64,000 nucleotides of DNA. Origin: a virus. Within the stretch, counting starts at the first letter, position 1; each line of letters opens with the position of its first letter. Under the pieces are notes generated by a model. That model was given only the letters and a program-made list of their open reading frames with translations, ran no database searches and was not told where the DNA came from. This document shows, in pieces, positions 3,401 to 64,000 of the stretch. Position numbers and translations under genes: made by a program. The stretch lies in IMG/VR virus record IMGVR_UViG_3300032323_003202, positions 7,077-71,076 of that record. One strand, 5' to 3'.

Positions 3401-5289
3401 CAGAAGATTTCTTCTATGATAATAGATTATATGTTGATACTAATGGGGATTCAACAGATTTAGATCCTGCAAATGATACAATTTCATTTACTTTTATAGG
3501 TGGTGAAACTGCAACAAATGATGTTTATTCAGAGTATTCTGGTTATAACTATATTATATTAAGTGAGAATATTTCTCTAACTTCACAAGAACATATTATA
3601 GTTCCTTCTTCTGAATTAAACACAGGAGTATTTACAATAGTTAATAATTCTGTTAATCCAACAGGACAAACTCCTGCACAATTAGCAATAGCATTAAATT
3701 CAAATTATAATGGTTGGTTTGCTTATGAAGTTGCTGAGAATGTTACTTATGAGTCATTAACTGATGTGAATATTATATTTGCAGTTGATAATAAAAACTA
3801 TCTTAGTATGTATATTGATACTGATGGTAATTTACAAGCAGCATTTGTAGATGAGACATTAACTGCATCATCAACAGTTGATGTTATGGCAAATAATACA
3901 TTCTATGTTCAGTCTGGATTATCAAACTTGAAACAAACTATTGAAATTGAAACTCCTACTGGATATGTTCAAGTTCCTAATAAAGTATTAGTTAATGGTG
4001 CAAGATATACTGAATTAAAAGTTGGTGATTTCTTAGAAGCAGATACTGATGGTATTGTTTTACCACTTGGTCAACAATATGCTAGAAAACTTACAAGAGT
4101 TTTAAGTAAAAGACAATATGCTTTAGATACTTCATTAACTGAAATCACTTGTGATGCTAAAATATTAAAGACAGAATTAGTTCAAGGTACTGGAGACTTT
4201 CAAACAACAAGATATGTAACTATTGACCAATATGCAACCACTTATAAAACTATTTCATTAAAAGGATTTAGAATTAGAGAAGCTTCATTACCTGATGGTA
4301 CAGAAGCAAGACAAAATACTATTTTGAATTCTGTTGCTAAAGGAACTCCATTGTTCAAAGCTTTAACAAATAAAGAAGCATTTGACTTTAGATATTTAGT
4401 TGATGCATTTGGATTAGGATTAACAGAAAGATCTAAACAACAATTAGTTGATATTTGTGGTGAGAGATTAGATGCATTTGGTTTCATTAATATGCCATCA
4501 ATCAGATCATTCAAAAACTCATCTTCACCAAGTTTTGTTAACTCAGAAGGTGTATTACAAGCAGAGTTTATTGCAAAAGGAGGAGATCCAGAAAGCAATC
4601 CAGCATTCTTGTATTCATTTGGTGAAGGAACTGGTGTTTCTGCAGTAGGTTACTTTACTCCATATGTAGTGGTAAATGATAATGGTAGACCATTAAACTT
4701 CCCACCTGCATCTTATGTAGCAACTACATATGTTAGAAAACACATTTCTAATGTTAGCTCAGTTACTCCTTGGACTATTGCAGCTGGTGTTACAAATGGT
4801 AGAGTTACAAACATTGCAGGATTAGAGATTGATTGGGATCCAACAGATATTGAGTTCTTAAATCCAGCTCAAATTAATCCAATTGTGTTGAAAAAGAATA
4901 GAGGTTTTGTTATTGAAACAGAAAATACTGCTTTAGTATTATACAGATCTGCACTTTCTTATATTCACACTAGAGAGGTATTAATTGAACTTGAAAGAGA
5001 ATTATCAAGTATGTTACTTGACTACCAATGGAAATTCAATACTCCAGATGTTAGAGCTGAAATTAAACTAAGAGCAGATGTTATCTGTGAGACTTATGTA
5101 AGTAGAAATGGATTATTCAATTACTTTAACAAAATGGATGATGAGAATAATACAGCAGAAATCATTGACAACCAAATTGGTGTTCTTGATACTTATGTAG
5201 AACCAATCAAAGGTATGGGAATCATTGTAAATAACATTACAATATTAAGAACTGGTGCTATTGCAGCAGGAGGATTCTTAAATGCATAA
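493..5289 (+). CDS. Contractile tail sheath protein (T4 gp18-like) with very large central insertion
   Basis: N-terminal RPGIFIEEID..GVSKKGPVNTP..FG; C-terminal sheath motifs PWTIAAGVTNG, INPIV, SALSYIHTREVL, FNTPDVR, DDENNTAEIID, VEPIKG. Confidence 0.93.
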   Translation: MAIQIGKYKRPGIFIEEIDRSIFSAAAAAESITNLVIGVSKKGPVNTPIRLTTVTDLEAVFGQLDRNLERKGSFFHRTISKMLETTPVFAMNLLVTDDTLDKIEYKSLSSSAVYKNDIKREGPYRRFFDTTGFWSRDTESFINLTKGDVGYADRALGLTNLSDRHISVFVVKTSVTGFDRTLLEWYGSVEKMPAYVSQLDYASDYMVDVIVVGGDWSNYRELAVDSRWAAYFNTNGLIKGQLRNFANDRNITLLAYYEGLSLIPYFRDLNGRNIFIETSINRDTDKTGLFCQFNAELVEQDYYTGLVDLIGNTLADTNATEIDFLSYKEKITESVELTQVPLDLPGNVTSLFGNIFGLDGDLYDSTIVSPSFGGYAIFTSGTPGTQTLSINSGSYSSGATAEIELDYSGRINNGVTFSATSNTTDGIYGTHTGVGFTTGDALATIFIDTTNKLKLQTIATSSLSTQIVSSSASTTFSYALGTATASFAFGVTGLINTITVTSEGSNIAPGATFAIPANTFGATSSASILTIGTSSVQAEVKRITITNGGSLGDYTAGTLTLDTASPINGTVNVTLTTAKQERYASIVDIVDAGSNYQIGETITINTIGAFGTNTNTIFTLRSANLVSVSDYSYYGQPNHAFDPNNGIPLTSGVIQNGNFRTGYFGEGSVFDITRNGGTTTGSSTYDITYDIGTNAFAIMNDVKVNVTSTLGYKSFSISVTAYPVTAIPATYRSVFYLDTTGNINIKNSLVKDINPTVSQDDIVLGYVKLTVVSGSFTNCVFTDISVDANGYKDFVFGEEIIDTNTPDNRTAPDFYIESLTPADGFDSSIKVTFIGTNTVSSLRNYAQLRKYKMFNWLIDKIDSTNKNKLTLLVDQNPTSMTKHSLVDATITDIEFSPIRNKSFVLNLMTSSTTDLENGWLTLYTEDNEFILGSNAVVTKDAPADSGIGLTGSVGKYSDFYLEFYNGKINTEDFFYDNRLYVDTNGDSTDLDPANDTISFTFIGGETATNDVYSEYSGYNYIILSENISLTSQEHIIVPSSELNTGVFTIVNNSVNPTGQTPAQLAIALNSNYNGWFAYEVAENVTYESLTDVNIIFAVDNKNYLSMYIDTDGNLQAAFVDETLTASSTVDVMANNTFYVQSGLSNLKQTIEIETPTGYVQVPNKVLVNGARYTELKVGDFLEADTDGIVLPLGQQYARKLTRVLSKRQYALDTSLTEITCDAKILKTELVQGTGDFQTTRYVTIDQYATTYKTISLKGFRIREASLPDGTEARQNTILNSVAKGTPLFKALTNKEAFDFRYLVDAFGLGLTERSKQQLVDICGERLDAFGFINMPSIRSFKNSSSPSFVNSEGVLQAEFIAKGGDPESNPAFLYSFGEGTGVSAVGYFTPYVVVNDNGRPLNFPPASYVATTYVRKHISNVSSVTPWTIAAGVTNGRVTNIAGLEIDWDPTDIEFLNPAQINPIVLKKNRGFVIETENTALVLYRSALSYIHTREVLIELERELSSMLLDYQWKFNTPDVRAEIKLRADVICETYVSRNGLFNYFNKMDDENNTAEIIDNQIGVLDTYVEPIKGMGIIVNNITILRTGAIAAGGFLNA

Positions 5290-26147: not shown

Positions 26148-26357
26148 ATGAATGGGATAAATATAAGTATGAGAGAAGTTATTGTTAAGTCAGAATCAAG
26201 ACCACTTAGAACTAAGTGGACAACTGAATTATCAACTGACTTAGATACATATATTAATAGTGATGTATCTGATGAGTTAGAAAGATTATTAGCCAATGAA
26301 ATTAGAAGAGAAATGAGAAAGAAAAAAATAGAAAAAATCTTGAAACATATTGCTTAA
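26148..26357 (+). CDS. Small hypothetical protein with C-terminal RKKKIEKIL motif
   Basis: ORF track. Confidence 0.55.
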   Translation: MNGINISMREVIVKSESRPLRTKWTTELSTDLDTYINSDVSDELERLLANEIRREMRKKKIEKILKHIA

Positions 26358-28352: not shown

Positions 28353-29162
28353 TTATTTTATCCAGAACCATTTCATGGTCTTTTCCCAAGATTGTGGTGT
28401 TTCTACCATATAATACATTGAATCATTAGGTTTTAATATAACATTAAGTCCTACTCCTGCTGTATTTTCAGTTCTCATAACAATTATCTTATCAGGATCA
28501 ATGAAAGGTGTTACTATAAGATTCATACCACCAAGTATAGATGTATTATTATCAATTATTTGTTCATAACCCTGAATATATTGTATAACATTTTTACCAA
28601 CTATAACAGTATTTGCAATACCTTTAGCACTTTCCATTGCAATAAAATTACTACACATTGTAATTTTTGTTAAAACTCTTCTTTTAAATGATTCAAATGA
28701 ATCTAAACCATTATAAGTTGGTATGGTAAGATTTAAAGTATTACCAGGTAACTTAGCAATTGAAGTAGGTACATTTTTAGTTAAACTTTCTAACTTATTA
28801 AATACTTCATATTCTAAATCTTTGAAAGATGTAAATTTCTGAGCTCTTGTATTTACTGTGAATAATTTTGGACTTATTGTTGGATATGATCCAAACCCAG
28901 TGTTAGGTAAATTATTTCTATTTTCCCATTCAATTTCATCTTTTTCATCTAAAATGATGTCAATTGCTAATTCTCTGTTTTCTCTTTTTAACTCTCTGAG
29001 TTGAGCATCTTCATCTTCTGTAATCATATCTATATAACTTAGTGAGATTGATGGTAGATAAGGATTTTTAGTATCTTCTGTATAGTTACAGATTTTTTCT
29101 ATATTTGTTTTCATTATACTTTTAATCTTTCTTCTAAAGCAAGTAATTTCCTTTTGTTCCAA
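28353..29162 (-). CDS. Protein containing a partial major-capsid-protein (A-domain-like) paralog
   Basis: KRRVLTKITMCSNFIAMESAKGIANTVIV aligns by eye with MCP QRKLITRIAHASNYIATEGRVGPAQYLIT. Confidence 0.6.
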   Translation of the reverse strand: MEQKEITCFRRKIKSIMKTNIEKICNYTEDTKNPYLPSISLSYIDMITEDEDAQLRELKRENRELAIDIILDEKDEIEWENRNNLPNTGFGSYPTISPKLFTVNTRAQKFTSFKDLEYEVFNKLESLTKNVPTSIAKLPGNTLNLTIPTYNGLDSFESFKRRVLTKITMCSNFIAMESAKGIANTVIVGKNVIQYIQGYEQIIDNNTSILGGMNLIVTPFIDPDKIIVMRTENTAGVGLNVILKPNDSMYYMVETPQSWEKTMKWFWIK

Positions 29163-29791
29163 GTTTCTTGATCAACTTGCCACTTTAAATGATATTGTTG
29201 GTCTGCTTGATCTGGTTGTCTTAATCCAGCTGAGTGATGAACATGTAGAAATTGAACTCCATCATGATATCCATTTATTATCATTCCTAAATCTTTACAA
29301 TTTAAAAATAACTCACAATCTGAAAACATATGATTATATGCAGGATGATATATTACTTTATTTATTTTTTTCAAACAACCATAACTCATAAGAGGTATTG
29401 TTATACAAGGATCAATCATATTTGAAGAATCTTCTAATTGATAACCATCTGGAACAAATAGACATCCATCTTGGTCTTTAAATTTATTTACAAGATAAGT
29501 GTCCCAACTATCAGGTGGTAGAAAGTCATCTGATGCAAAAACTACAACATCTGAATCATTTTCACATTCTAAAGTTGAACTTAGTATATATGATGGATAA
29601 CAAACTCCTATTTTATCTGTATTTACAACTTTTACCTCAACTGGATAGTCTTTTAAAAATTCTTTATGTTCTTCCCAGTTTACTGCAACAATAGTTCTTA
29701 TATTCTCTTTATTATCTGCCTTTTCCATCCACTTCTGATGAAAATTTTTAAATTGTGTTGGTCTAATAGTACACCAAAGTATAGTTATCAT
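29114..29791 (-). CDS. GT-A fold glycosyltransferase
   Basis: ITILWCTIRP, VVFASDDF (DxD-like), YNHMFSD, HVHH. Confidence 0.75.
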   Translation of the reverse strand: MITILWCTIRPTQFKNFHQKWMEKADNKENIRTIVAVNWEEHKEFLKDYPVEVKVVNTDKIGVCYPSYILSSTLECENDSDVVVFASDDFLPPDSWDTYLVNKFKDQDGCLFVPDGYQLEDSSNMIDPCITIPLMSYGCLKKINKVIYHPAYNHMFSDCELFLNCKDLGMIINGYHDGVQFLHVHHSAGLRQPDQADQQYHLKWQVDQETWNKRKLLALEERLKV

Positions 29792-30555
29792 TATGTTATC
29801 TTTCTATTTTTATCTCCAATAAATGGTTTAACTGAATCAATATATTCTTTTAATTTATCCTTAGTTATACTTACATAGTTATTATATATCTGTAAATTTC
29901 TATAATACCATTGTTGTTCAGGTTGAACTTTGTTATGATATAAATGATAACAATTATTATCATTTTCTTTCCATTTCAAGAAGTGTTTTACTTTGATACT
30001 CATTGCATCATCTTCAGCACCCCAACCAAAGAACTCTTCTGGCCAACCCCCTATTCTTTCTAATGCTTCTTTAGTAAAAATAGTCATTGCACCACACATT
30101 GGTAATTTTTGATGGTCTAACTCACCTCTACCAGGTCTTTGAATATTAAATATTTCATTACAATCCAATTTATTTTCATTTGGGTCTAAGTCAACTAATC
30201 TAATATGTGGTGAAACAAAGTCATAATTTTCTAATTCATCTATTGATGATAGTATGTGTTTGGTATCAATTAAGTTATCCGCATCTCCAAACACAATAGT
30301 ATCAGTAGTTGCAGATTTCCAAGCAACATTTAAACTCCAAGATTTATTAAATGGTAGTGGGTTACTCATAAAAATATAATTTTCATTGGTTATTATATTT
30401 TTAGTAGGTAGTATAGGTTCTAAACCTTGTTCAATAACAATTACTTCACAATTCAAGTTTGAATCTTTTATATTTTTTAATACTTTTTCTAATGTAAGAG
30501 CTCTATCATCAGTATATTTAAAAGGTATTATATAAGTAAAATTAAAACTGGTCAT
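29791..30555 (-). CDS. Glycosyltransferase (GT2/GT7-like)
   Basis: YIIPF, FNKSWSLN, FGDAD, GGWPEEFFGWGAEDD, HLYH. Confidence 0.85.
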   Translation of the reverse strand: MTSFNFTYIIPFKYTDDRALTLEKVLKNIKDSNLNCEVIVIEQGLEPILPTKNIITNENYIFMSNPLPFNKSWSLNVAWKSATTDTIVFGDADNLIDTKHILSSIDELENYDFVSPHIRLVDLDPNENKLDCNEIFNIQRPGRGELDHQKLPMCGAMTIFTKEALERIGGWPEEFFGWGAEDDAMSIKVKHFLKWKENDNNCYHLYHNKVQPEQQWYYRNLQIYNNYVSITKDKLKEYIDSVKPFIGDKNRKIT

Positions 30556-31279
30556 ATTTATTAATTTGTGAATTTTTTGGCATACTAAGATTTATTGATT
30601 TAATTAAATCTTCTTTAGATAGATTATTTAATGTTTGAAGTAGTTGTAGATTTCTTTGTTGTAAAACCATATTAGGCATTTCTCTATTATAGTATAATTG
30701 ATAACCTTTTTGGTCAAGCTCAGTCCAATTTAGAAATTGTTTTACTTTATTTGATAAAAATTCATCTTCACCATGTCCAATAAGTTCTTCATACCAGCCA
30801 CCTATTTTTTGTATAGCATCTTTTCTGAAAATACAAAAACTCTCACATATTGATTTTTCTCTACCAAATCTATCAATATTTAAAATATCTGGTAATTGTA
30901 AACCTGATTCATTTTGTTGAAGTTCAATTTGTTTTTTATAAGGACTAACCATATCATATTTTTCTATTAGTTTAAGTCCTTCAATAAATTTATTAGGATC
31001 CATAATTATTCCTAAATCAGAAAATACTATTACATTTGATTTTGATAATTTTGTTCCAACATTAAATCCCCAGGCTTTATTATAGGGTTTATTTGATTTT
31101 AGGAAAACTTGTCTTGCTTTTAAAGGTAGGTGTGAAATTTTTGAGTGTGTATCTTGTTCAACAAGAATAACATCAACCCCTGCAAATCCATTAATCCAGT
31201 CAAGAGTTCTTTTTAGATTATTGAATTTTTCTAAAGAATGTCTATACCCTATTATAAAGGTAAAAGTGTGTGTATTCAT
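30542..31279 (-). CDS. Glycosyltransferase paralog, possibly degenerate
   Basis: YNKAWGFN, FSDLG (DxD altered), GGWYEELIGHGEDE. Confidence 0.7.
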   Translation of the reverse strand: MNTHTFTFIIGYRHSLEKFNNLKRTLDWINGFAGVDVILVEQDTHSKISHLPLKARQVFLKSNKPYNKAWGFNVGTKLSKSNVIVFSDLGIIMDPNKFIEGLKLIEKYDMVSPYKKQIELQQNESGLQLPDILNIDRFGREKSICESFCIFRKDAIQKIGGWYEELIGHGEDEFLSNKVKQFLNWTELDQKGYQLYYNREMPNMVLQQRNLQLLQTLNNLSKEDLIKSINLSMPKNSQINKYDQF

Positions 31280-31318: not shown

Positions 31319-31471
31319 TTATTGTTTAGGAGTAATATACTCTTTTTGATTAATTATAGTTAACATTTGATTAGTTGATAATTCATTATGATTCCAATTC
31401 ATCTTCTTACAGAAGTTTAATAGAAACTTTTCTCTTAATAATGAAATGTTTTCTTTTTGTGATTTATCCAT
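31319..31471 (-). CDS. 50-aa hypothetical protein (not in ORF track)
   Basis: MDKSQKENISLLREKFLLNFCKKMNWNHNELSTNQMLTIINQKEYITPKQ*. Confidence 0.55.
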   Translation of the reverse strand: MDKSQKENISLLREKFLLNFCKKMNWNHNELSTNQMLTIINQKEYITPKQ

Positions 31472-32636: not shown

Positions 32637-33743
32637 ATGAATAATAATGTAGATAAACAATACCTTGATTTTTTAAGACATATTCTTAAAAATGGTGTTA
32701 AAAAAATTGATAGAACAGGTACAGGAACAATATCTGTATTTGACTACTCTATGAGATTTAATATGAGTGAAGGATTCCCTTTACTTACTTCCAAAAAAAT
32801 GTTCACTAAAGCAGTTATCATAGAACTTATGTGGTTCTTGAAAGGTGATACCAATATCAAATACCTAGTTGATAATGGTTGTAATATCTGGAATGGTGAT
32901 GCTTATAAGGCATATGAGAGATATGTTTTCTCTACAGAAGAAAAAATAAGAAAAGAAAATTGGCAATGTGATTTTCAACCAATTGAGATTATGACTAAAG
33001 AACAATTTGTTGATAATATGAGAAATGACCCTGAGTTTCATGAAAGATGGGGTGACTTAGGTCCTGTTTATGGTGCTCAATGGAGAAATTGGGAAGGTGT
33101 TTCTGCTGGTATGGCAATTTCACGTGATATGGAATGGGGTTCTAATAATGTAGAAGAAGAGAAATATGGTATAGACCAAATTGCTAATCTTATTAATGAT
33201 CTTAGAACTGATCCAGACTCAAGAAGACTTATGGTTAATGCTTGGAATGTTTCAGAAATTGAAAATATGACTTTACCACCTTGTCACTTTGGATTTCAAT
33301 GTTATACTACAGAAATGACATTTGAACAAAGACTAGAACACTGGTGTAGTTCATTAGGTAAACACATTAGTTATGGTAATGACTTTGATGAAAAGAAATT
33401 AGATGAATTGAATGTTCCAAAGAGAAAATTGGATTTGAAATGGTTTCAAAGGTCAGTTGATTCATTTTTGGGATTACCATTCAATATTACATCTTATGCA
33501 TTACTATTACATCTATTGGCAAGAGAAGTTAATATGGTTCCAAATGATTTAATATTTTCAGGTGGTGATTGTCATATATACCTTAATCATGTTGATGTTG
33601 TTAAAAAACAATTAGAACAAGAAACATATAAGTTACCAAAATTAGAATTATCTAATAAATCAATTGATGATATAAAATATGAAGATTTTAATATAATTGG
33701 ATATCAATCATCACCAACTCTTAAAGGTGAGTTGTCAAATTAA
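32637..33743 (+). CDS. thyA: Thymidylate synthase
   Basis: DRTGTGT, FPLLTSKK, LGPVYGAQWR, SRR, LPPCH, QRSVDSFLGLPFN, DCHIYLNH. Confidence 0.96.
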   Translation: MNNNVDKQYLDFLRHILKNGVKKIDRTGTGTISVFDYSMRFNMSEGFPLLTSKKMFTKAVIIELMWFLKGDTNIKYLVDNGCNIWNGDAYKAYERYVFSTEEKIRKENWQCDFQPIEIMTKEQFVDNMRNDPEFHERWGDLGPVYGAQWRNWEGVSAGMAISRDMEWGSNNVEEEKYGIDQIANLINDLRTDPDSRRLMVNAWNVSEIENMTLPPCHFGFQCYTTEMTFEQRLEHWCSSLGKHISYGNDFDEKKLDELNVPKRKLDLKWFQRSVDSFLGLPFNITSYALLLHLLAREVNMVPNDLIFSGGDCHIYLNHVDVVKKQLEQETYKLPKLELSNKSIDDIKYEDFNIIGYQSSPTLKGELSN

Positions 33744-47725: not shown

Positions 47726-48417
47726 TGAAAAGTTGTAGTAAATGTAAAATTGAAAAAGAATTTATTCATTTTCATAAATGTTCAAAGAATAAGATTGGAT
47801 ATAGGTCACAATGTATTTCTTGTGGAAATGAATATAAAATTCTAAATAAAGATAAACAAAAAGAATATTTTAAAAATAGAAATAATTCAAAAAAAGAAGA
47901 ATTAAAAGTAAAAGCATCAGAGTATTATTTGATAAATAAAGAAAGAATTATATCAAAAACTAAAGAATACTATGACAATAATAAAGAATCTAAATTAGAG
48001 TATCAAAAAGAGTATCAAAAAAACAATAAAGATAAAAGAAATTCTTACCTAATTGAAAGAAGACAAAATGATCCTTTATTTAAGCTAATAACAAATGTTA
48101 GAAATTTAATATATAATTCATTCTATTATAATGGATATTCTAAAAATTCAAAGACAGAAGAACTATTAGGTTGTTCTTTTGAAGAACTAAAGCAACATTT
48201 AGAATCTAAATTTGAACCTTGGATGACTTGGGATAATAGAGGATTATATAATGGTGAATTAAACTATGGTTGGGATATTGACCATGTTATACCATTATCA
48301 AGTGTAAATGAAGAAATTGATATAATAAAATTAAATCATTATACAAATTTACAACCACTCTGTAGTAAAGTAAACAGAGATATAAAGAAAGATAATTTAG
48401 AATATGGCGTCATATAA
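47725..48417 (+). CDS. HNH-type homing endonuclease with N-terminal Zn ribbon
   Basis: CSKC..CISC; WDIDHVIPLSS..LNHYTNLQPLC..N. Confidence 0.8.
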   Translation: MKSCSKCKIEKEFIHFHKCSKNKIGYRSQCISCGNEYKILNKDKQKEYFKNRNNSKKEELKVKASEYYLINKERIISKTKEYYDNNKESKLEYQKEYQKNNKDKRNSYLIERRQNDPLFKLITNVRNLIYNSFYYNGYSKNSKTEELLGCSFEELKQHLESKFEPWMTWDNRGLYNGELNYGWDIDHVIPLSSVNEEIDIIKLNHYTNLQPLCSKVNRDIKKDNLEYGVI

Positions 48418-50158
48418 CAATTTTGACACAAATAGTAACACTGCAAACTTTGGAGCTGCTGGACAATCTGCAGTAGAAAACAAAGGACTATTTAATAGGA
48501 TATTAAGGACTTTATCATCTTATGGTATGAACTATGATGATATGATTATTAGAAATCAAGTAGGTATTGGAATTAATGAAGATCCATATGCTGCTCGTGG
48601 AAATTCGATGTATGATTTCTTCTCCCAAAGGGCTGTAGCATCTGTATTAAACAGAAAATCAATACCTTATCTAGACAAAGCTTATGCAGATAAAAGAAGA
48701 ATTTTAAGAGAGTATTCTATTAAAGATGAGATTAGAGACTTTGTGAGTTCAATTGCTGATGAGTGTATAGTTTATAATGATGAGAGAGATTTCTGTTCAC
48801 CAGTGGCTTTACCAGTAGAATATTCAACAGAGATACAAGATAAGTATCAAGAGTACTTTGAATCAATTTATAACAAGTTTGGTTTCTCTGATAACATTAC
48901 TGCATGGAATATGATGAAAGACTTTTTAGTTGATGGTTATGTTGCACTTGAGATTATATTTGATGATAAAAAGAAAAATATTATTAGTTTCAATAGATTA
49001 AGACCAGAGACTTTAGTTCCTGCATATGAACCAGCAATTGGTCATTTATGGATTCAGTTTCCTGAGGATCCACAATTAAGAAGAATATTTTTAGATTCAC
49101 AGATAGTTTATGTTTCTTATTCAACTCAAAATGAATTTTCAGAGACATCTTATGTAGAGGGTTTGATTAAGCCTTATAATCAATTAAAAATATTACAACA
49201 AACAAGAATAATGTTTAACATTATTAATGCAACTATTTATCAAAAGTTTACTATTCCAATCAAAGGTATGTCAAGACAAAGAGCAGAAGAGCAAATAGGT
49301 CAATTAATACATGATTATTCAGAAGAAGTAGAATGGGATGATTCATTGGGAACTTTAACAATTAATGGTTCTAAACACTTACCTTATAACAAACAGATTT
49401 GGTTTCCTGAGGGAGATGGTGGGACACCTAATATGGAATTAGTTTCTCCACAAGGTCATAACTTAAATGATGACACAATGTTAGATTGGTTTTTCAAGGC
49501 ACTAAAAAGGGCATCTAAAATACCAATGTCAAGATTTGAAGGTGATAATGGTGGTGGTAACTTAGTTACTGATGCAGCTGAGATGACAAGAGATGAGATT
49601 AAGTTTCACAACTTTGTAAATAGATTAAGATCTAACTTTAAAGAATTAATTGTTAAACCATTAAGACTACAGATGTTAATTGAATTTCCTGAATTAAAAG
49701 ATGACCAGTTTTTTACAAATGCTATTGATGTTAATTTCTTTACCAATCAAGTATTTGAAGAATGGAAAAAGATAAACAATTTAGAAAAGAAAGCAGGTAT
49801 AGTTGGTACTTTACTTGGTGTTATGAATGGTGAGAAACCATACTTTCACATTGAATGGATTATGGATAATGTATTCAAACTTACTCCAGAAGAAAAGGCA
49901 GAAAATGCTAAGTACTGGGCAATGGATGTTGCTAATCAAGCAGCTGCAGCAACTGGTGAACCTGGTGCTCCATCAGAAGGTGGTGGAGGTGGTGGCTTTG
50001 GTGGTTCTGGTGAAAGTGGTGAAATGCCTGGTGGTGGAGGTCAAGCAGCTCCACAAGCAGCACCTGAAGCTCCTGCACAAGGTGGAGGTCAAGCAGCACC
50101 TCAAGCAGCACCAGAAGCTCCTCCAGCACCAGAGGGTGGAGGTGAGTTTGAATTCTAA
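48404..50158 (+). CDS. Portal protein (T4 gp20-like)
   Basis: FLVDG, SYVEGLIKPYNQL, KIPMSRF, EMTRDEIKFHNFVNRLRSNF; Gly/Ala/Pro tail. Confidence 0.92.
   Translation: MASYNNFDTNSNTANFGAAGQSAVENKGLFNRILRTLSSYGMNYDDMIIRNQVGIGINEDPYAARGNSMYDFFSQRAVASVLNRKSIPYLDKAYADKRRILREYSIKDEIRDFVSSIADECIVYNDERDFCSPVALPVEYSTEIQDKYQEYFESIYNKFGFSDNITAWNMMKDFLVDGYVALEIIFDDKKKNIISFNRLRPETLVPAYEPAIGHLWIQFPEDPQLRRIFLDSQIVYVSYSTQNEFSETSYVEGLIKPYNQLKILQQTRIMFNIINATIYQKFTIPIKGMSRQRAEEQIGQLIHDYSEEVEWDDSLGTLTINGSKHLPYNKQIWFPEGDGGTPNMELVSPQGHNLNDDTMLDWFFKALKRASKIPMSRFEGDNGGGNLVTDAAEMTRDEIKFHNFVNRLRSNFKELIVKPLRLQMLIEFPELKDDQFFTNAIDVNFFTNQVFEEWKKINNLEKKAGIVGTLLGVMNGEKPYFHIEWIMDNVFKLTPEEKAENAKYWAMDVANQAAAATGEPGAPSEGGGGGGFGGSGESGEMPGGGGQAAPQAAPEAPAQGGGQAAPQAAPEAPPAPEGGGEFEF
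50030..50125 (+). repeat. Duplicated GGGQAAPQAAPEAP unit in the portal low-complexity tail
   Basis: GGTGGAGGTCAAGCAGC..CAAGCAGCACC..GAAGCTCCT occurs twice. Confidence 0.8.
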
Positions 50159-50192: not shown

Positions 50193-50597
50193 TGTTTCTG
50201 GTAAGTCTATTGTAAATGAAACATTTCTCTCTGTGAATACTTGTCTGACTTCAAGTTCTATACCTGCATCATAAATTTCTTTTAATTTTTTTCCACAATC
50301 AGTTTCTAAAAATTCTGCTTCTAATGTTAAGTTTTCAATATTATTATCTTTTATAATGAAAGTCATACCACTTATACTAAAAGCCATTGTTTGTAATTTA
50401 CCTGGATTTTCAAGAGTTACAAAATCTTGTACCATTCCAATCTTTTGTATATTGTCAACATCAAACTGAACTTTCTTACCTTCGAGTAGTGTAGATAGTT
50501 TAATATCTCTATAAAAAGATTTCCACTCATTATAAGTGGAAAGTGCTTTATCATACTGGTCTAAAGTATTATTGTTTAGTTTTACATTTAATTTCAT
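50175..50597 (-). CDS. Hypothetical protein with RDIKLSTLL motif
   Basis: TAATG-coupled downstream of RNase R. Confidence 0.6.
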   Translation of the reverse strand: MKLNVKLNNNTLDQYDKALSTYNEWKSFYRDIKLSTLLEGKKVQFDVDNIQKIGMVQDFVTLENPGKLQTMAFSISGMTFIIKDNNIENLTLEAEFLETDCGKKLKEIYDAGIELEVRQVFTERNVSFTIDLPETKNPFN

Positions 50598-52471
50598 TAG
50601 AATACTTCAAAATCTATTTGTTTTCTATCTAAGTCAACTGATTTAACAGTTACTTTAATTTCATCACCTAATCTTATTGAACCTCCCATTTTAGGAAATA
50701 CAATATAATTTTCAGCATCAACTGTGTAGTTATTGTTATATCTAACCATTCCTTCACATTTACTATCAATAAGTTCTACATACATACCCCATTCAGTTAC
50801 TCCTGATACAATACCTTCAAATACATTTCCAATTTTATCTTCTAAGTATTCAATTTGTTTATATTTAATTGAGTCTCTTTGTGCTTTTGCTGCTAAGATT
50901 TCTCTTTCAGAACACCATTTAGCCATATCTTCAATTTTCTTAGGACTTCCAATTGATTTTTTATTTAAGTAGTCAAATAAAACTCTATGAGTTATTAAAT
51001 CTGGATATCTTCTAATTGGTGAAGTAAAGTGAGAGTAGTGAGTAAATCCTAATCCATAGTGTCCAGAGTTTATAATTGTATAAGTTGCTTTAGACATACA
51101 TCTTGTGATTAAAGTTTCAATCATATTTTCTTCTGGTTTACCTTTAATATCTCCAACCAATTGGTTAATTGATTTTTTAAGATTTGTTGGTTCACCTTCA
51201 ACTTCTAAAGTATAACCAAAGTTTTTACATATTAAAGAAAGAGCTTGTAACTTTTCAATATTAGGAGTATCATGTACTCTATAAACATTTGGATATTTTG
51301 CTTCTGATAATTCTTTAGCAACTAATTTATTTGCAAGTAACATATATTCTTCAATAAGTTTATTTGCATCTTTTTGAGTTTTAAAATAAACACCAGTTGG
51401 TTTCTTTGTAATTGGATCCAATTGAAATCTTACTTCAATTCCACCCATTTCAATAGAACCATCTTCTATTCTTTGTTTTCTCATTTTCTTGGCAGTTGTA
51501 TCTAATAGAAGTATTTCAGTTTTGAAATCTCCATCTTTACCTTCAATTATTTCTTGAGCTTCTTCATAAGAGTATCTTCTATCTGAATGTATAATAGTTT
51601 TACCAAACCATTTATTCAATACTTCTCCTTCTCTATTTAAAGTAACTACAACTGAGAAACAAAGTTTATCTTCATTAGGTCTTAATGAACATACACCATT
51701 ACTCAATCTCTCAGGTAACATTGGTACACATCTATCAACTAAATAAACTGATGTGGCTCTGTTAATTGCTTCATCATCTAAATCAGTTCCTTCTTTAACA
51801 TAGTGAGATACATCTGCAATATGAATACCAACTTCAACAGTATCATTATCTAAAATGTTTACTGAAAGAGCATCATCAAAATCTTTAGCATCAACAGGGT
51901 CAATGGTAAAGGTTGTAATACTTCTCATATCTCTTCTTTTTTCTATTTCATCTTGTGATATTTCAAAGGGAATTAATTCTGCATCAGCTTCAACCATTAG
52001 AGGGAAACTATTAGGTAATCCATATTCATACATAATTGAGTTCATTTCGGTATTGTTATCTCCAGATTCTCCTAAGATTTCAATAATTTTACCTTTAGGT
52101 GATTTAGAACCAGGTTCCCAGCTTGAGAACTCAACCAAAACTTTTTGGTCATTCTTAGCATTGTGGTCACCTTTAATATAAAAATCTACTGGAATTTTTT
52201 GACTGTCTGGTATTACAAAGGTTAGGTCTTTGTTTAAGTGTACTTTACCAACAAATTGGGTACGGAATCTTTCTAATACTTCTATTACTTCCGCTTCTAC
52301 TTTATTATTCTTAATAATAATCTTAACTTTTACTTTATCTGAGTTAAGTGCATTCAAAGTATTTTTTTTATAGATAAAAATACTTTTATTCTCTATTGTA
52401 ATGGATGCATTACCACTATTTGAGAATTCTATAGTACCATCATAGATACTATCTTCTTTTAATTTATTCAT
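50597..52471 (-). CDS. rnr: Ribonuclease R (RNB family)
   Basis: CSD region, TIDPVDAKDFDDALS, HIADVSHYV, LIEEYMLLAN, YSHFTSPIRRYPD, C-terminal S1. Confidence 0.93.
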   Translation of the reverse strand: MNKLKEDSIYDGTIEFSNSGNASITIENKSIFIYKKNTLNALNSDKVKVKIIIKNNKVEAEVIEVLERFRTQFVGKVHLNKDLTFVIPDSQKIPVDFYIKGDHNAKNDQKVLVEFSSWEPGSKSPKGKIIEILGESGDNNTEMNSIMYEYGLPNSFPLMVEADAELIPFEISQDEIEKRRDMRSITTFTIDPVDAKDFDDALSVNILDNDTVEVGIHIADVSHYVKEGTDLDDEAINRATSVYLVDRCVPMLPERLSNGVCSLRPNEDKLCFSVVVTLNREGEVLNKWFGKTIIHSDRRYSYEEAQEIIEGKDGDFKTEILLLDTTAKKMRKQRIEDGSIEMGGIEVRFQLDPITKKPTGVYFKTQKDANKLIEEYMLLANKLVAKELSEAKYPNVYRVHDTPNIEKLQALSLICKNFGYTLEVEGEPTNLKKSINQLVGDIKGKPEENMIETLITRCMSKATYTIINSGHYGLGFTHYSHFTSPIRRYPDLITHRVLFDYLNKKSIGSPKKIEDMAKWCSEREILAAKAQRDSIKYKQIEYLEDKIGNVFEGIVSGVTEWGMYVELIDSKCEGMVRYNNNYTVDAENYIVFPKMGGSIRLGDEIKVTVKSVDLDRKQIDFEVF

Positions 52472-53028: not shown

Positions 53029-55212
53029 ATGAAACCAGTTTTAATAGTAGAAAATTCAACAAATTCTCTTGTAAGAGAGAGTGCTTCTACAGGTAATAAG
53101 GATTTTTTCCTTAATGGTACTTTTACAGAGTTTGGTGTTAAAAATCGTAATGAAAGAATATACACTGCTGAGAAGTTCTTACCTGCATTGGCAGAGTTGA
53201 ATGAAAGAATGAGCAGCTTAGGTGCTGTTTTTGGTGAGTTTGATCACCCAGATGTTTTTGATACCTCATTGTCAAGAGCATCTCACATCATCACCAAAGC
53301 TGAATATGTTTCTGAAAAGAACACAGTTGAAGGAGAAATCAAATTGTTAAGTACATATTGGGGAAAAGAAGCAAAGGCATTAGTTAATGATGGATGTCCT
53401 GTTTTTGTATCTTCTAGAGCTGCAGGAATTACTGAATCTGATGGTTCAGTATCATTGAAAAAACTTTTTACTTATGACATTGTTGCTGATCCAGGATTTG
53501 CATCTGCAAAAATGAGTGTAAAAGTATTAAATGAATCTTTAGGTTACTGTACTGATGGACAAATTGAAAAAAATAACTTTAGGATATATGAGATGTCTGA
53601 CGAGTCCAAAATGAACGAATTATTCAAAATGAACAACAATGACTTTGTAACAAAACAACAATTAACTGATTATTCAAACTATTTAGTTAATGAGATTGCT
53701 TCTACTAAGAAAGTAGTAAACAATGCAATTACAAAAGGTAATATGCCTGCTAAGAAATTAGAGCAATTACTTGAGTATTATGAAGAGTTAAATGGAACTA
53801 ACTCACAAGTTGCTAAATATTTAGATTATTTAGCTGACAAAATTCAAGTAGTAGTTAATGAAAACAAATCATTAAAAGAAACTACTACAAAATTGGCTAA
53901 ACACAATGATTACTTAGCTGAGAACTTAGAAAAAGCTATTAATTATTCAGAATATTTAGCTGAAAACTTAGACAAAAACATTGAGTATTCAGAGTATTTA
54001 GCTGAGAACTTAGATAAAAATATCAACTACTCAGAATATATTGCTGAAAACTTAGATAAAAACATTTCTTACTCAGAATATTTGGCTGAAAACTTAGACA
54101 AAAACATTGAGTATTCAGAATATTTAGCTGAAAACTTAGACAAGAATATTGCTTACTCTGAATACATTGCTGAAAACTTAGACAAAAACATTGCTTACTC
54201 AGAATATATTGCTGAGTCAGTTGATAACTCTATTGCTTACTCAGAATACTTAGCAGAACATGTTGAAGGTAACATTGCTTACTCAGAATACATTGCTGAG
54301 CATTTAGATGATAACATTGCTTACTCTGAATATGTTGCTGAAAACTTAGACAAATCTATTTCTTACCAAGGAATGATAGTTGAAAAACTTAATGCATTTG
54401 GTAAATTAAATGAAGGATTTGGTGAAGATGATACTCAATTCCCATCTATTGAAGATGCTGGATTTGAATCTCAAGAAGATGATAAAGAAGGTCAATTTGC
54501 TGGAGAAGAAGGTGAAGAATTTGCTGGAGAAGAAGGACACAATGACTTTGCAGAAGAGGCTAAAGAATTTGCTGAAGAAGCTAAAGAATTTGCTGAAGAA
54601 GCTGAAGAATTTGCAGAAGGACATGAAGGTGAAGGACATGAAGGTGAAGAATTTACACAAGAAGAAGGTGAAGAAGAATTTGCAGGTCATGATGACTCTG
54701 AACTTTCTGAATCAATAAATAAATTAATTGAAGAAGCTAAAAAACGTAAAGTTTCTGAAAGCAGTGATTTGAACTTTTTAAAGTTCTTAAACAAATCACA
54801 AGTTGATAGTTTTTATGCTCTATCAGATGAAGAACAAGATACTGTTAAACTACACATAAACGAGAGTAGTTATTTTACACAGAAAGAAGTTCTTACTTTG
54901 ATCTCAGAAGCATTATCAACTAAAAACGAAACTCTTGAAGAAAGAGTAATCAGATTGATGCCTGATAACATTAAGCCAATCTGGGGTACTTTAAATGAAT
55001 CTGCTAAAAAATCTGTCTTATCACAAGCTAGATTATATCCAGAGGAAGTTTTAAGAACTGAAAATCAAATTGAGCATTTCTGGGGAACTAGAAATATCAA
55101 AACTAATGAAACTGTAACTAAAAAACTTGTTGCTCATGAAGGTTTAATCCAAGAGGATAAACTATCTGATAATGAAGTTTCTATGATTATGGAAAGATTT
55201 AGAAGAGTATAA
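53029..55212 (+). CDS. Prohead protease (T4 gp21-like) fused to scaffold/core-like domain
   Basis: NRNERIY, GEFDHP (His), VSSRAAG (Ser), YDIVADPG; then coiled-coil repeats and an acidic region. Confidence 0.9.
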   Translation: MKPVLIVENSTNSLVRESASTGNKDFFLNGTFTEFGVKNRNERIYTAEKFLPALAELNERMSSLGAVFGEFDHPDVFDTSLSRASHIITKAEYVSEKNTVEGEIKLLSTYWGKEAKALVNDGCPVFVSSRAAGITESDGSVSLKKLFTYDIVADPGFASAKMSVKVLNESLGYCTDGQIEKNNFRIYEMSDESKMNELFKMNNNDFVTKQQLTDYSNYLVNEIASTKKVVNNAITKGNMPAKKLEQLLEYYEELNGTNSQVAKYLDYLADKIQVVVNENKSLKETTTKLAKHNDYLAENLEKAINYSEYLAENLDKNIEYSEYLAENLDKNINYSEYIAENLDKNISYSEYLAENLDKNIEYSEYLAENLDKNIAYSEYIAENLDKNIAYSEYIAESVDNSIAYSEYLAEHVEGNIAYSEYIAEHLDDNIAYSEYVAENLDKSISYQGMIVEKLNAFGKLNEGFGEDDTQFPSIEDAGFESQEDDKEGQFAGEEGEEFAGEEGHNDFAEEAKEFAEEAKEFAEEAEEFAEGHEGEGHEGEEFTQEEGEEEFAGHDDSELSESINKLIEEAKKRKVSESSDLNFLKFLNKSQVDSFYALSDEEQDTVKLHINESSYFTQKEVLTLISEALSTKNETLEERVIRLMPDNIKPIWGTLNESAKKSVLSQARLYPEEVLRTENQIEHFWGTRNIKTNETVTKKLVAHEGLIQEDKLSDNEVSMIMERFRRV
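53908..54367 (+). repeat. 42-bp / 14-aa tandem repeat (NIAYSEYLAENLDK), 10 full copies plus flanks
   Basis: Ten YSEY units counted in the translation. Confidence 0.92.
54490..54690 (+). repeat. Acidic 7-aa repeats (EFAEEAK / EFAGEEG)
   Basis: GAATTTGCTGAAGAAGCT repeats. Confidence 0.8.
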
Positions 55213-55307: not shown

Positions 55308-56999
55308 ATGTCACAAATTAGAATAGATAATCAAAAAGCCATGAAAAAATGGTCTCCAGTGTTGGAAAACATGGGAGTAACAGGTGATAGACTTGAATGG
55401 ATGTCAGAATATGCTGAATTCCACTCTATCAATGAGAATGCATATGTTAATGCTACAAATGTAGCAGGTATGGGTAATGTAACTAACCCAGTTGTTGGTT
55501 CACTTCCAGGTAACACTTTAGGTGGTCAATTTGGTGCAGGTCTTGGTGCAGTTTCAGGTTCTGGTGATGTTGGTCAAAACTTATTACCAGTTGCAATGAA
55601 AATTGCTGCTCAAACAATTGGTTTAGACTTAGTTGCTGTAAAACCAACTCCAGGTCCAAAATTAGATTTACTTTATATTGACTTTCAATATGATGATGTT
55701 GATATGAATACTGATGTTAATGAAAGACCACAAGTTTTCAAAATTTCTGCAACTGCATCTACATTAAATGCATTAGCTGGATTAACAAATTCAGGTACAA
55801 TTACAACAGGTCAAGGTAGTTTAGTTGGTGGTAGAGTATTCCTTAGTATTGCTACATCTTCAACTACTGTTGGAACAGGTGTTTTTTATACTGAGCCAGT
55901 TAAAGGTTCTAGACAAAATATTGTTGAATTCTTAGGATTCTCAAGAATTGATGGATTACCAATGTTTAGAGCATTTAGACAAGCTAACACATCTGGTGCT
56001 TATACACCTAATACTTTTGTACAAGGTGATAATACATTTTTACCAACTGGTGCTATGACTACTCAAATATTATTTGTTGCTGGTATTGCACAAGCTTCTC
56101 CTGCAATTACATTAGTATCTGCATTAGAAGATCACCTTCCAGGTTTCTCTTCAAACTGGTCAGCTCCATTAACAGGTGCTGCTTCAGGTGCTTATCCAAT
56201 GACAAGATTAGAAGATGATCAATCTTACTCAGGTGTTATTGGACCAAAAATTTCTTCTAAAACTATTGCAGTTGGTACTATTGAAATATCTTCAGCTTTA
56301 AGAAGAACAGAAATTGAAGACATCAAAGCTAACACAGGTATGGATATTGTTCAAAAAATGGAATCAATCCTTGTTAATGAATTGTCTCAAACAATCTCTA
56401 AACAAATTGTTGCTAAAATATTTGAAATGGGAGCTTTAAATGCTACAACTGCACCTAAAAAACAAAATGGTGAGTCAATATTTGACTTAAATACAGCATA
56501 TGCATATGGTAATACTTCACCAGGTGGAGAGACTACTCACGCTATCCAAAGAAAACTTATAACTAGAATTGCTCACGCTTCTAACTATATTGCAACTGAA
56601 GGACGTGTTGGACCAGCTCAATACTTAATCACAAATGGAGGTTTAGCTGCTGCATTACAAGATATTGCTGGTTACACAATTAACCCAGTTAAATCTAAAA
56701 TTAACTCTCAAGGTCAACTTTACCCAGTTGGTTCTATCGGAGACATCTCTATCTATGTTGATCCATACATGAGATATAACGATAACAGAATCGTATTAGG
56801 TAGAAAAAATAACCCTGACCAACCAGGTATCATCTTTGTACCTTACTTAATGGCACAATCTATCTCAGTTATCTCTGAGGCTACATTTGCTCCAAGAATG
56901 TTACTAAGATCAAGATATGCTGTTGCAGAAGTGGGATGGTATCCACAAAAACAGTTCATGACTATTACAGTTACTGATGCTGTTCAATTACTTAACTAA
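55308..56999 (+). CDS. Major capsid protein (T4 gp23-like)
   Basis: KKWSPVLE, DLVAVKPTPGP, IYVDPY, GIIFVPY, TFAPRMLLRSRYA. Confidence 0.93.
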   Translation: MSQIRIDNQKAMKKWSPVLENMGVTGDRLEWMSEYAEFHSINENAYVNATNVAGMGNVTNPVVGSLPGNTLGGQFGAGLGAVSGSGDVGQNLLPVAMKIAAQTIGLDLVAVKPTPGPKLDLLYIDFQYDDVDMNTDVNERPQVFKISATASTLNALAGLTNSGTITTGQGSLVGGRVFLSIATSSTTVGTGVFYTEPVKGSRQNIVEFLGFSRIDGLPMFRAFRQANTSGAYTPNTFVQGDNTFLPTGAMTTQILFVAGIAQASPAITLVSALEDHLPGFSSNWSAPLTGAASGAYPMTRLEDDQSYSGVIGPKISSKTIAVGTIEISSALRRTEIEDIKANTGMDIVQKMESILVNELSQTISKQIVAKIFEMGALNATTAPKKQNGESIFDLNTAYAYGNTSPGGETTHAIQRKLITRIAHASNYIATEGRVGPAQYLITNGGLAAALQDIAGYTINPVKSKINSQGQLYPVGSIGDISIYVDPYMRYNDNRIVLGRKNNPDQPGIIFVPYLMAQSISVISEATFAPRMLLRSRYAVAEVGWYPQKQFMTITVTDAVQLLN

Positions 57000-57069: not shown

Positions 57070-57462
57070 ATGAGAATAAAGAAATATAAATCATTTAATG
57101 AGAGTAAAAATAAATTTCCAAACATAAAAACTTTGGATATTGATGGATTTATTGTATATTTGGGTCGAGATGCAAAATCTAATGACCATTTAACATTTAA
57201 TATGTCTGATTCTGATGATATTTGGATGCATACAAAAGGTGTTCCAGGTAGTCATATGTTAATTGTAGTTAAAGAAAAATTACCTACACCAGAAGTAATT
57301 AAAAGAGTTGCTGAGATTGCAAAAAAGAATAGCAAAGCAAAAGATGAAGATAAGGCAACTGTAGTTTATTGTAAAGCAAAATTTGTTAAAAAACAACCTG
57401 GTATGAATGATGGTCAAGTAAGAGTTGATTATGGTAACTCACATGAGGTAATAGTAAATTAA
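57070..57462 (+). CDS. NFACT-R (DUF814-like) RNA-binding domain protein with leader MRIKKYKSFNES
   Basis: LGRDAKSNDHLT, DIWMHTKGVPGSH, A.IA..SKA, V.Y, VKK..G..GQV. Confidence 0.85.
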   Translation: MRIKKYKSFNESKNKFPNIKTLDIDGFIVYLGRDAKSNDHLTFNMSDSDDIWMHTKGVPGSHMLIVVKEKLPTPEVIKRVAEIAKKNSKAKDEDKATVVYCKAKFVKKQPGMNDGQVRVDYGNSHEVIVN

Positions 57463-57471
57463 ATAAAAATA

Positions 57472-58818: not shown

Positions 58819-58819
58819 T

Positions 58820-59197
58820 ATGATAGATAATTATAAAAAGTTTACAGAGAGTGTTGATGATAGAGACCATTATGATGATGAATATTATGGTCATAATAAT
58901 GATGGTATGGAACATATAACTTACTTATTAAGAACTTCTTTAAGAAACAAAGGTATTGATGATTTTACAGTTGATTATTCTGGTTATGATATATGTATAT
59001 CAGTATTTTGTTATGAATTAGAAAGATTAAAAGATATGATTAATATATTTGATATATTACAACATCTAAAAACTGATATTATACCACAATATGATTCTGA
59101 ATTTGATATGTATCAAACTAAAAGAACAGGTGGTACTATATTAGAGTTTAATTTCTATTATAATGAAGGAAATGGTGATGATTTTGATAATGAATAA
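58820..59197 (+). CDS. Hypothetical protein with leader-like MIDNYKKFTES
   Basis: ORF track. Confidence 0.6.
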   Translation: MIDNYKKFTESVDDRDHYDDEYYGHNNDGMEHITYLLRTSLRNKGIDDFTVDYSGYDICISVFCYELERLKDMINIFDILQHLKTDIIPQYDSEFDMYQTKRTGGTILEFNFYYNEGNGDDFDNE

Positions 59198-59217
59198 AAA
59201 ATTAATATATTTGTACT

Positions 59218-60516: not shown

Positions 60517-60567
60517 AAAGTAAACTTTTTAGGCTTTTTAATTATAATATATAGTATTACATTATTA

Positions 60568-60932
60568 GGGGGTGTTACAGAATTGATTTGTGGTCTAATA
60601 GTGATTATGCAAGTATCGGGTGGTCTACAATGACCGATTAATAAATTAGTTGATACAATTTTAAACGGAAACGTAAACCAAGTAGGAACAAGTGAAGATA
60701 TAGTAGCTTGCTTACAAAACAACATGATCTCTGATCTAGTAGTAGCTTAATTAAGTTTAAACTATTATGCACAAAAAAGCTGTGTCACCAGTTGAAAAGT
60801 GAAACTTTTTTATTAGAGTTTTGAGATTCAAAAACTAAATATTTTGTAAGTTAAGAAAAACTTACTAAACTTGTAAATGAATAGTTATTATTAACTGAAA
60901 AAGACACGTTGGGCAGTACAACGTCACCTCCA
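60568..60932 (+). ncRNA. ssrA: Phage-encoded tmRNA (one-piece)
   Basis: 5' GGGGGTG pairs with 3' CACCTCC-A, including G3.U70; T-arm ACGTTG-GGCAGTA-CAACGT; helix 2 AATAGTGATTAT/TGCAAGT pairs with ACTTGTA/ATAGTTATTATT; internal tag ORF 60667-60750; upstream AATATATAG; downstream terminator. Confidence 0.9.
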
Positions 60933-63860: not shown

Positions 63861-64000
63861 ATGTTCAATGATATTAAGTTGAGTGATGTTATAACATTGG
63901 ATAAAAGTGTTAATACTAACTTTACTAAATACTCTACATCTGTTCAAATGAGTTCTGATGATTTCTCACTTATTAGAGAACATATTGAAAAAGATATTGC
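63861..64000 (+). CDS. 3'-truncated hypothetical ORF
   Basis: ATG 63861, open to the window end. Confidence 0.4.
   Translation, partial: MFNDIKLSDVITLDKSVNTNFTKYSTSVQMSSDDFSLIREHIEKDI

Follow-up and report, generated by a model that had tools for sequence, protein, structure and literature searches.

A compact paralogue of the major capsid protein linked to a glycosyltransferase gene in huge phages

A 64-kb stretch of virus DNA (positions 7,077 to 71,076 of IMG/VR record IMGVR_UViG_3300032323_003202; hereafter the window), taken from a 71-kb fragment with a completeness rating of 12%, encodes on its minus strand, at 28353..29114, a 253-residue protein with a predicted HK97-like core. Profile comparisons identify this protein as a true homologue of the phage's own gp23-type major capsid protein (MCP). 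Judged by its relatives, it is a member of a conserved stand-alone huge-phage family of about 250 residues, not a recent truncation or a decayed gene copy, and gene order indicates that this family is invariably linked to one glycosyltransferase (GT) gene. Its substitution patterns are those of a functional, fast-changing protein under purifying selection. We tentatively propose that it is a capsid-derived functional partner of the GT, with a core that engages the capsid. As far as our literature searches show, a rapidly diversifying, half-size MCP derivative tied to a GT has apparently not been described so far.

Homology to the major capsid protein

The first-pass annotation of the window had read this locus as a truncated paralogue of the MCP, on the basis of two short motifs in its C-terminal half that aligned by eye with the product of 55308..56999 (plus strand). 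That product, the parent paralogue, is a gp23-type MCP of 563 residues (Pfam Gp23, PF07068, E = 2.4e-29). It is 69–70% identical to the MCPs of two uncultured phages (635 and 642 kb), 28% identical to the MCPs of Lak megaphages and 25% identical to that of Sphingomonas phage PAU; the grouping described in PMC7824862 has gp23-type MCPs and the Prevotella megaphage within jumbo-phage group 2.

The paralogy is upheld by four comparisons. BLASTP of the locus against the MCP aligned 54 residues at 31% identity (E = 5e-5 as a single comparison), an alignment that covers the first motif but leaves the second out. Profile A1, made from 28 family members and searched against the six-frame translation of the 71-kb record, matched the MCP at E = 8.3e-9, and a profile of 94 members (A2) matched it with 65 bits (E = 3.5e-19, Z = 1000). 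Finally, an alignment of profile hidden Markov models, the check that the annotation had called for, was run with hhalign between A2 and an alignment of 85 MCP sequences (of the contigs with MCP relatives from this clade, 80 of 223 were kept for comparison). It returned a probability of 98.7% and E = 2.2e-16 over 224 columns, placing residues 22–253 of the compact protein on residues 251–556 of the MCP. The register proposed by eye is reproduced in this alignment, and both motifs reflect real homology. Two blocks are strong: residues 78–93 with MCP 307–325, which is an E-loop strand, and residues 140–253 with MCP 410–556, which comprises the A-domain and the final strands. The A2 profile also matches the MCPs of other phages, namely PAU (6.7e-13), LR756501 (1.4e-12), LR756500 (2.2e-10), Lak-C1 (1.6e-6) and MA9V-1 (3.6e-6).

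General-purpose family searches do not reach this relationship. Neither Pfam nor PHROGs assigns the protein to a family. Against Pfam Gp23 it scores 11.6 bits (E = 0.004, six-frame search), below the cut-off of 24.4 bits; its orthologue in genome W01 also falls short, at 17 bits, and a Pfam scan of the protein gave no match at E ≤ 0.1. Searches of PDB chain sequences with A1 and A2 found no capsid protein and returned chance matches only (E ≥ 0.07).

The open reading frame (ORF) first marked at this locus, 28353-29162 on the minus strand, runs for 269 residues from a TTG codon and consists of the compact protein plus an in-frame extension that overlaps the upstream gene. The true start is almost certainly the ATG at 29114, because an identical 253-residue protein (P0001) is already recorded, because the 53 relatives found all cover 53–94% of the 269-residue query and 48 of them are 237–262 residues long, and because this ATG and the stop of the preceding gene (29114-29791) share bases in the string TAATG.

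The description of the protein as truncated holds in part. The N-terminal 250–300 residues or so of the MCP have no counterpart in it, it is half the length of the MCP, and the hhalign alignment places gaps of 25 columns in the spine helix and 18 residues in the P-hairpin, so that the N terminus, spine and P-hairpin are all reduced. What remains, however, is a conserved family of about 250 residues that is under purifying selection and has an overall fold resembling that of HK97.

Predicted fold

An AlphaFold2 (AF2) model of the compact protein, built from alignment A1, has a mean predicted local distance difference test score (pLDDT) of 81.1 and a predicted TM-score (pTM) of 0.79. Foldseek comparison of this model with the PDB gave at least 93 matches at E ≤ 0.001, and the 33 that were listed are all head entries of phages or phage islands, including HK97 gp5 (8.9e-7) and T4 heads (query-normalized TM-score, TMq, up to 0.52). 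Against BFVD there were at least 103 matches at E ≤ 0.001, the best at 2.9e-10; the named matches among those listed are almost all MCPs, together with one 297-residue "head vertex protein" of Vibrio phage nt-1 at rank 22. In the ESM Atlas, the nearest named clusters carry Phage_capsid.

The earlier statement that the protein lacks the rest of the HK97 fold is not borne out by the model, which matches whole capsid proteins of this fold (HK97 gp5 and T4 heads). Capsid proteins account for every PDB match listed, but the Foldseek TM-scores are modest (0.34–0.54) and the root-mean-square deviations large, and we therefore claim an HK97-like core rather than a precise superposition. Alignment and model together indicate that the protein has retained an E-loop strand and the A-domain, along with a spine helix that is shortened and P-strands that are reduced. 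Going by the succession of secondary-structure elements in the model, residues 22–32 would be the first E-loop strand and residues 33–79 a small helical insertion. In HK97-type shells, the spine helix and the P-hairpin build the contacts between capsomers.

Family and distribution

An exhaustive search of representative sequences found 116 clusters of the family at E ≤ 0.001, none of them longer than 281 residues and none an MCP. Searching proteins of similar length with A2 gave 77 matches, all of 142–270 residues and all lacking Pfam domains, and a search with A2 among 8000 candidates for longer, fused relatives found none, which is weak evidence against their existence. The family was found solely in contigs of huge phages: tblastn over 50,697 phage records gave relatives in only 2, and a scan of 185,579 prokaryote species genomes with patterns derived from A1 gave no relative. 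In the 94-member alignment, R47 is the sole invariant residue, and G165, G222 and F250 are conserved at 90% or more.

Coupling to a glycosyltransferase gene

Our comparison covers 29 related loci (IMG/VR supplied 27 and GenBank 2), which represent 23 distinct sequences, several loci being near-duplicates; absences in the counts that follow include loci cut by contig ends. A homologue of the window's 245-residue GT (30542..31279, minus strand) lies upstream of the compact gene, in the same direction, in 29 of 29 loci. In 27 of these it is directly upstream, the two genes overlapping or abutting, and what lies beyond the GT, further upstream, differs from locus to locus. The two exceptions are the window and locus L010, where two extra GT genes (29114-30555) have been inserted between the conserved GT and the compact gene; these insertions were found only in those two loci, and the overlapping stop/start junctions are kept. 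The annotation had noted that the compact gene follows three GTs. This is true of the window, two of the three being recognized by Pfam and the one at 29114-29791 by PHROG alone, but the conserved state is a single GT upstream, the other two being peculiar to the window and L010.

The conserved partner is assigned as a GT by Pfam (Glyco_tranf_2_2, 9.3e-7) and by synteny, its motifs in the window being degenerate. Of the inserted genes, one encodes a GT paralogue of 254 residues (29791..30555, minus strand; Pfam Glyco_transf_7C 3.9e-9 and Glycos_transf_2 6e-9) and the other a GT-like protein of 225 residues (29114..29791, minus strand; PHROG 14945, glycosyltransferase, 2.9e-6, no Pfam match). 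An AF2 model of the conserved GT (pLDDT 88) has its best Foldseek matches in beta4GalT1 (2.9e-9), GalNAc-T2 (5.6e-9, TMq 0.68) and chondroitin synthases. The motifs D-x-D, GWGGEDD and YHLYH, which we take to be catalytic as in GT-A enzymes, are present in 20 of 22 aligned orthologues; the window and L010 copies have degenerate DxD, WGGEDD and YHLYH and a deletion of 6 residues, and the inserted paralogue at 29791-30555 retains GDAD, GWGAEDD and YHLYH. The genomes with a degenerate ancestral GT are exactly those that gained the intact paralogue and the third GT-like gene.

The C-terminal 12 residues of the conserved GT are themselves conserved, with K235, N240 and D243 invariant in 22 sequences, and residues 236–245 are predicted to be disordered (pLDDT below 50). 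A tail that is conserved and yet disordered in the model is suggestive of a docking peptide.

Around this pair, the first gene of the minus-strand string is a small ORF of 50 residues (31319..31471, minus strand), found ahead of the GT in 26 of the 29 loci. Downstream lies a convergent module on the opposite strand, which consists of genes for proteins of 444 residues (23/29), 69 residues (25/29), 411 residues (28/29), 50 residues (20/29) and 178 residues (28/29).

Rates of change

The compact protein has a median identity of 37% to its relatives, compared with 54% for the GT, 54% for p178, 64% for p411 and 74% for p444. Across ten contigs that carry both genes it is 34–66% identical, and the MCP is 70–80% identical (67–80% overall). 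The ratio of nonsynonymous to synonymous substitution rates (dN/dS) relative to its three closest relatives is 0.19–0.33, as against 0.06–0.10 for its neighbours p178 and p411, and its most variable segments are the loops at 66–79, 112–139 and 174–195. In the pair formed by the window and L010, its dS is 0.70, versus 0.21–0.35 in four of five neighbours (p411, 0.54; p50b, 0.57). This higher dS suggests allele exchange, and alleles of the compact gene have probably been swapped between genomes.

Other capsid-derived genes

The compact protein is one of at least four MCP-derived genes in this lineage, together with the MCP itself, a second compact paralogue that we call MCP2, and a 69-residue mini-gene, which makes the lineage a useful case of re-use of the HK97 fold. 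Only the first 46 codons or so of MCP2 lie in the window (63861..64000, plus strand), where the contig ends; they follow the gene for a D12 Dam methyltransferase at 62864-63856. Full orthologues of 243–261 residues are present in W02, W01, G001 and G003 (full copies at L135:4777-5508, L136:1489-2274, L137:1495-2244 and L138:1492-2241 (-)). MCP2 came to light when a 313-residue gp23-like protein of LR756500 was used as a query and matched a 243-residue protein of LR745206 whose gene lies about 5 kb beyond that for the MCP; orthologues of 249–261 residues were found in three of five further records searched. It matches the window MCP (BLASTP 4.9e-14; hhalign probability 99.2%, E = 1.4e-19), retains the P-hairpin segment that is missing from the protein encoded at 28353..29114, and has the D12 Dam methylase gene before it both in the window and in all 4 of the other loci examined, in two of which a 66-residue ORF intervenes. 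Its identity between genomes is 35–38%, and it is therefore likewise fast-diverging. The strand-plus-helix tail at its C terminus resembles the N-terminal module of the GT-linked protein (hhalign probability 78.6%, E = 1.7e-5). An earlier supposition, that W01 and W02, both complete genomes, have no second HK97-type gene besides the one for the GT-linked protein, is ruled out by MCP2, which had been missed in the Pfam and A1 scans.

The mini-gene (26148..26357, plus strand) corresponds to the E-loop and spine-helix part of Gp23 (Pfam 1.6e-8, 34.8 bits, above the cut-off of 24.4). It is present in 25 of 29 loci, between the 444- and 411-residue genes of the convergent module, and its dN/dS of 0.47–0.80 is the highest in the neighbourhood. 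We also considered whether it and the gene at 28353..29114 are halves of one interrupted gene, and ruled this out, as the two are on opposite strands, are both conserved ORFs and both cover the E-loop strand.

In LR756500, the same capsid-derived domain occurs in a fusion. Residues 14–206 or so of a 408-residue protein (L042:892-2118, minus strand) match A2 (5e-15; 6.4e-16), and residues 252–378 are an SIS domain (1e-16). The genes beside it encode a KdsB-type cytidylyltransferase (3e-53) and a member of the DAHP/KDO-8-P-synthase family (8.5e-35); this SIS fusion in a KDO-type operon independently connects the capsid-derived domain with sugar metabolism. LR756501 encodes a protein of 479 residues whose C-terminal part matches A2 at 5e-17. 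Elsewhere in LR756500 (L048:1330-2901, minus strand), two adjacent capsid-derived genes adjoin a RecA/UvsX-like gene, one encoding the gp23-like protein of 313 residues (MCP profile, 3e-22) and the other a protein of 209 residues that resembles the GT-linked family (A2, 3e-6).

Discussion

The conserved synteny, together with the LR756500 protein in which this domain is joined to a sugar isomerase, is why we favor a partnership between the GT and its capsid-derived neighbour. In this proposal, an old duplication of the lineage's gp23-type MCP would have produced a stripped-down but foldable HK97-core protein. This would now be the distal gene of a cassette whose proximal gene encodes a small, cytosolic GT-A glycosyltransferase with a fold like those of beta4GalT and ppGalNAcT. 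The two products would act together, with the capsid-derived core engaging MCP capsomers or the finished shell. The compact protein could then be a minor, glycosylated surface subunit, or it could be a docking partner that brings the GT or GTs to the capsid for virion glycosylation. We infer the physical contact of the protein with the GT or the capsid, as well as the glycosylation itself. The annotation had offered three possible roles, namely a decoy for capsid sensors, an assembly modulator and an adaptor that targets the GTs to capsids; the comparative data (synteny and the SIS fusion) favor a link to the GT, and they give the decoy nothing beyond fast evolution. Duplication of an MCP is already known, from gp23 and gp24 of T4. 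Our searches of the full-text literature, taken without supplementary files, yielded no description of an MCP paralogue that is coupled to a GT. If the pair acts on the capsid, it would be a sign that the largest known phages practise virion glycosylation or enzyme display, and it would offer a clonable two-gene system.

Several observations weigh against this proposal. The shortened spine helix and P-hairpin disfavor a regular position in the lattice. The 94-member alignment has no conserved Ser, Thr or Asn, and a fixed acceptor site on the compact protein is therefore unlikely. The divergence patterns of the two genes differ (in L009, identity is 86% for the compact protein and 65% for the GT; in L010, 66% and 91%), from which it follows that they have been exchanged separately. 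In gp23-type jumbo phages at a greater distance (PAU, MA9V-1 and Lak-C1), the family has no separate representative. The promoter-like 9-mer AATATATAC, described below, is absent upstream of the GT operon, which thus gives no sign of co-regulation with virion genes. Finally, conserved adjacency can survive without functional coupling in densely packed phage genomes.

The same pair might instead work away from the virion, the exapted HK97 core forming rings or a small shell, or behaving like a chaperone, and binding the product of the upstream enzyme gene inside the infected cell. We consider this rather unlikely. Its closest model is provided by the Family 4 "A-domain" encapsulins (PF08967, DUF1884), which, in the sections of the survey that describe them, are proteins of about 100 residues comprising the A-domain only, occur in thermophilic archaea and two Bacteroidetes genera, and are encoded directly downstream of an enzyme gene with whose product they are proposed to form a complex (Andreas and Giessen 2021, PMC8346489). 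Relative to that account, the operon logic here, an enzyme gene followed by a shortened HK97-derived protein, is the same (PMC8346489): the enzyme gene is upstream in 29 of 29 loci, directly so in 27. The inter-capsomer elements are shortened and the A-domain is retained, the same domain is fused to an SIS enzyme in LR756500, and MCP2 too has an enzyme gene before it, that of the D12 Dam methylase, both in the window and in each of the 4 other loci examined. The GT tail, conserved and disordered, also has what we take to be a likeness to cargo-loading peptides. On the other hand, at 253 residues the protein exceeds an A-domain alone; it is phage-encoded and gp23-derived, keeps an E-loop strand and P-strands, and matches neither DUF1884 nor the encapsulin families of Pfam at E ≤ 0.1. 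No further fusions are present among the 77 near-length A2 matches, the A2 searches gave no longer relatives, and enzyme genes are common chance neighbours in accessory-rich huge phages. Should the pair act off the capsid, phages would offer an instance of the path, proposed for encapsulins, by which a capsid protein becomes an enzyme scaffold. It is also doubtful, to our minds, that the adjacency to the GT is historical only, with the compact protein serving as some other head factor unrelated to glycosylation, such as an assembly chaperone, a scaffold-interacting protein or an internal head protein. Such a role would fit the resemblance of its N-terminal module (residues 5–58 or so, with R47) to the tail of MCP2, a hint that it has a partner in common with a head-module protein and not with the GT, and it would fit the independent assortment of GT and compact-gene alleles. 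It leaves aside, however, a synteny of 29 out of 29 loci, with overlapping or abutting genes, that persists across divergence to about 30% identity, and the independent fusion to a sugar enzyme in LR756500.

A place in the capsid itself is a further candidate role: gp24 of T4, the head vertex protein, is a paralogue of gp23. The protein considered here likewise arose by duplication and divergence of a gp23-type MCP of its own phage and has an HK97-like fold; the "head vertex protein" of Vibrio phage nt-1 (297 residues) is among its structural matches, and its gene lies within the wider virion-gene region. We nonetheless think it very unlikely to be a vertex (penton) protein analogous to gp24. 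Its gene is not beside that for the MCP but 26 kb away, at the end of a GT operon; it is half the size of the MCP, scores below the Pfam Gp23 threshold (11.6 versus 24.4 bits), and lacks full P-domain and spine elements (the 25-column and 18-residue gaps, if we have read their structural meaning correctly). It evolves much faster than the MCP, being 29–43% identical between genomes whose MCPs are 70–77% identical, and it is tied to a GT. LR756500, moreover, has a separate gp23-like protein of 313 residues alongside domains of this family. The lineage also contains a more gp24-like paralogue, MCP2, which is better placed, in the head module 5–6 kb past the MCP gene, is more MCP-like and keeps the P-hairpin; MCP2 is a likely candidate for a gp24-type vertex protein, and a better one. 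In the decoy reading, a capsid-like protein would titrate or blunt host sensors that recognize the MCP. Defences that sense MCPs, such as CapRel, are known, and the protein diverges faster than all its neighbours except the mini-gene, has apparently exchanged alleles and retains the most conserved surface motifs of the MCP. We regard this reading as highly improbable all the same, as it leaves the invariant coupling to the GT and the SIS fusion unexplained, and because such sensors are activated, not blocked, by MCP binding, so that a mimic could trigger them. We know of no anti-defence family of this kind, and no search aimed at one was run.

Returning to the favored partnership with the GT, there is precedent for glycosylated capsid subunits in mycobacteriophages, where phage GTs add glycans to the capsid and tail tube, the substrate being the C terminus of the MCP or tail-tube protein (Freeman et al. 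2023, cited in PMC12619734). There, too, phage GT genes lie among virion genes; the account given in PMC12619734 describes no MCP-derived partner protein, and in our system glycosylation itself is an extrapolation. A second point of comparison lies in the operons of Family 1 encapsulins, in which a cargo enzyme with a C-terminal targeting peptide is encoded upstream of an HK97-fold shell gene. The likeness extends to the order of the genes, an enzyme and then an HK97-fold protein of about 250–300 residues, and to the conserved, disordered C-terminal tail of the GT. The compact protein differs in having no encapsulin match in Pfam and none among the PDB Foldseek matches listed, and in belonging to a family that was not found in the 185,579 prokaryote species genomes.

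A broader idea, which we put forward as speculation and consider quite unlikely, is that this clade has repeatedly made HK97-core adaptors, encoded behind enzymes or fused to them, that tether or package an enzyme on or in the capsid or form an encapsulin-like enzyme assembly inside infected cells. It is prompted by three pairings, those of the protein at 28353..29114 with a GT, of MCP2 with the D12 Dam methylase, and of the LR756500 domain with a KdsD-type SIS isomerase. If this is true, phages would carry a counterpart of encapsulin systems that evolved independently.

Other features of the window

The compact gene lies between the genes for the tail sheath (493-5289) and the portal (48404-50158), 26 kb from the MCP gene. 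The window also encodes a prohead protease, an RNase II/R homologue, a thymidylate synthase and a D12 Dam methylase, in addition to the 1598-residue tail sheath and the T4-type portal, so that the region around the compact gene holds virion genes with many accessory genes scattered among them. In the tail sheath homologue (plus strand), the match to the sheath family is limited to the last 500 residues or so. The prohead protease homologue (53029-55212, plus strand, 727 residues; PHROG head maturation protease, 1.8e-31) has in its middle a long run of near-identical repeats of about 13 residues, with an acidic, E-rich stretch after it. The genes for the portal and this protease flank that for a full RNase II/R-type exoribonuclease (50597-52471, minus strand), which has RNB (3.4e-107), CSD and S1 domains. 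The thymidylate synthase homologue (32637-33743, plus strand) has 368 residues against a profile of 266 positions, that is, about 100 residues of insertion. An accessory island at 57070-63856 (plus strand) separates the MCP gene from MCP2; it encodes an NFACT-R RNA-binding protein, a NADAR domain protein, a LAGLIDADG endonuclease, the D12 Dam methylase and two paralogous peptidase-like proteins (57472-58818 and 59218-60516).

The 9-mer AATATATAC occurs nine times in the window, against 2.97 expected, a count reached in none of 100 shuffles (sites at 457, 12360, 23580 (-), 24402, 35622, 37368, 42186, 47576 and 57058). Seven of the nine copies lie 4–28 nucleotides before a gene start, those of the sheath, the 1988-, 1182-, 444-, 565- and 300-residue proteins and NFACT-R; of the remaining two, one is 141 nucleotides upstream of a gene and the other is inside a coding region. 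By its position and enrichment, AATATATAC may be a promoter element. A second motif, WATATATAGW, is weakly enriched (9 versus 4.0) and stands mostly 3 nucleotides before start codons. In most of the related loci (L012-L035), a 20-nucleotide A/T box containing TATAAATA, presumably the T4 late-promoter consensus, precedes the GT start codon by about 20 nucleotides, regardless of what lies upstream; in the window this box has two loose matches, which is not above chance. Upstream of the related MCP genes, a ATATATAGAT box is conserved at a distance of about 30 nucleotides.

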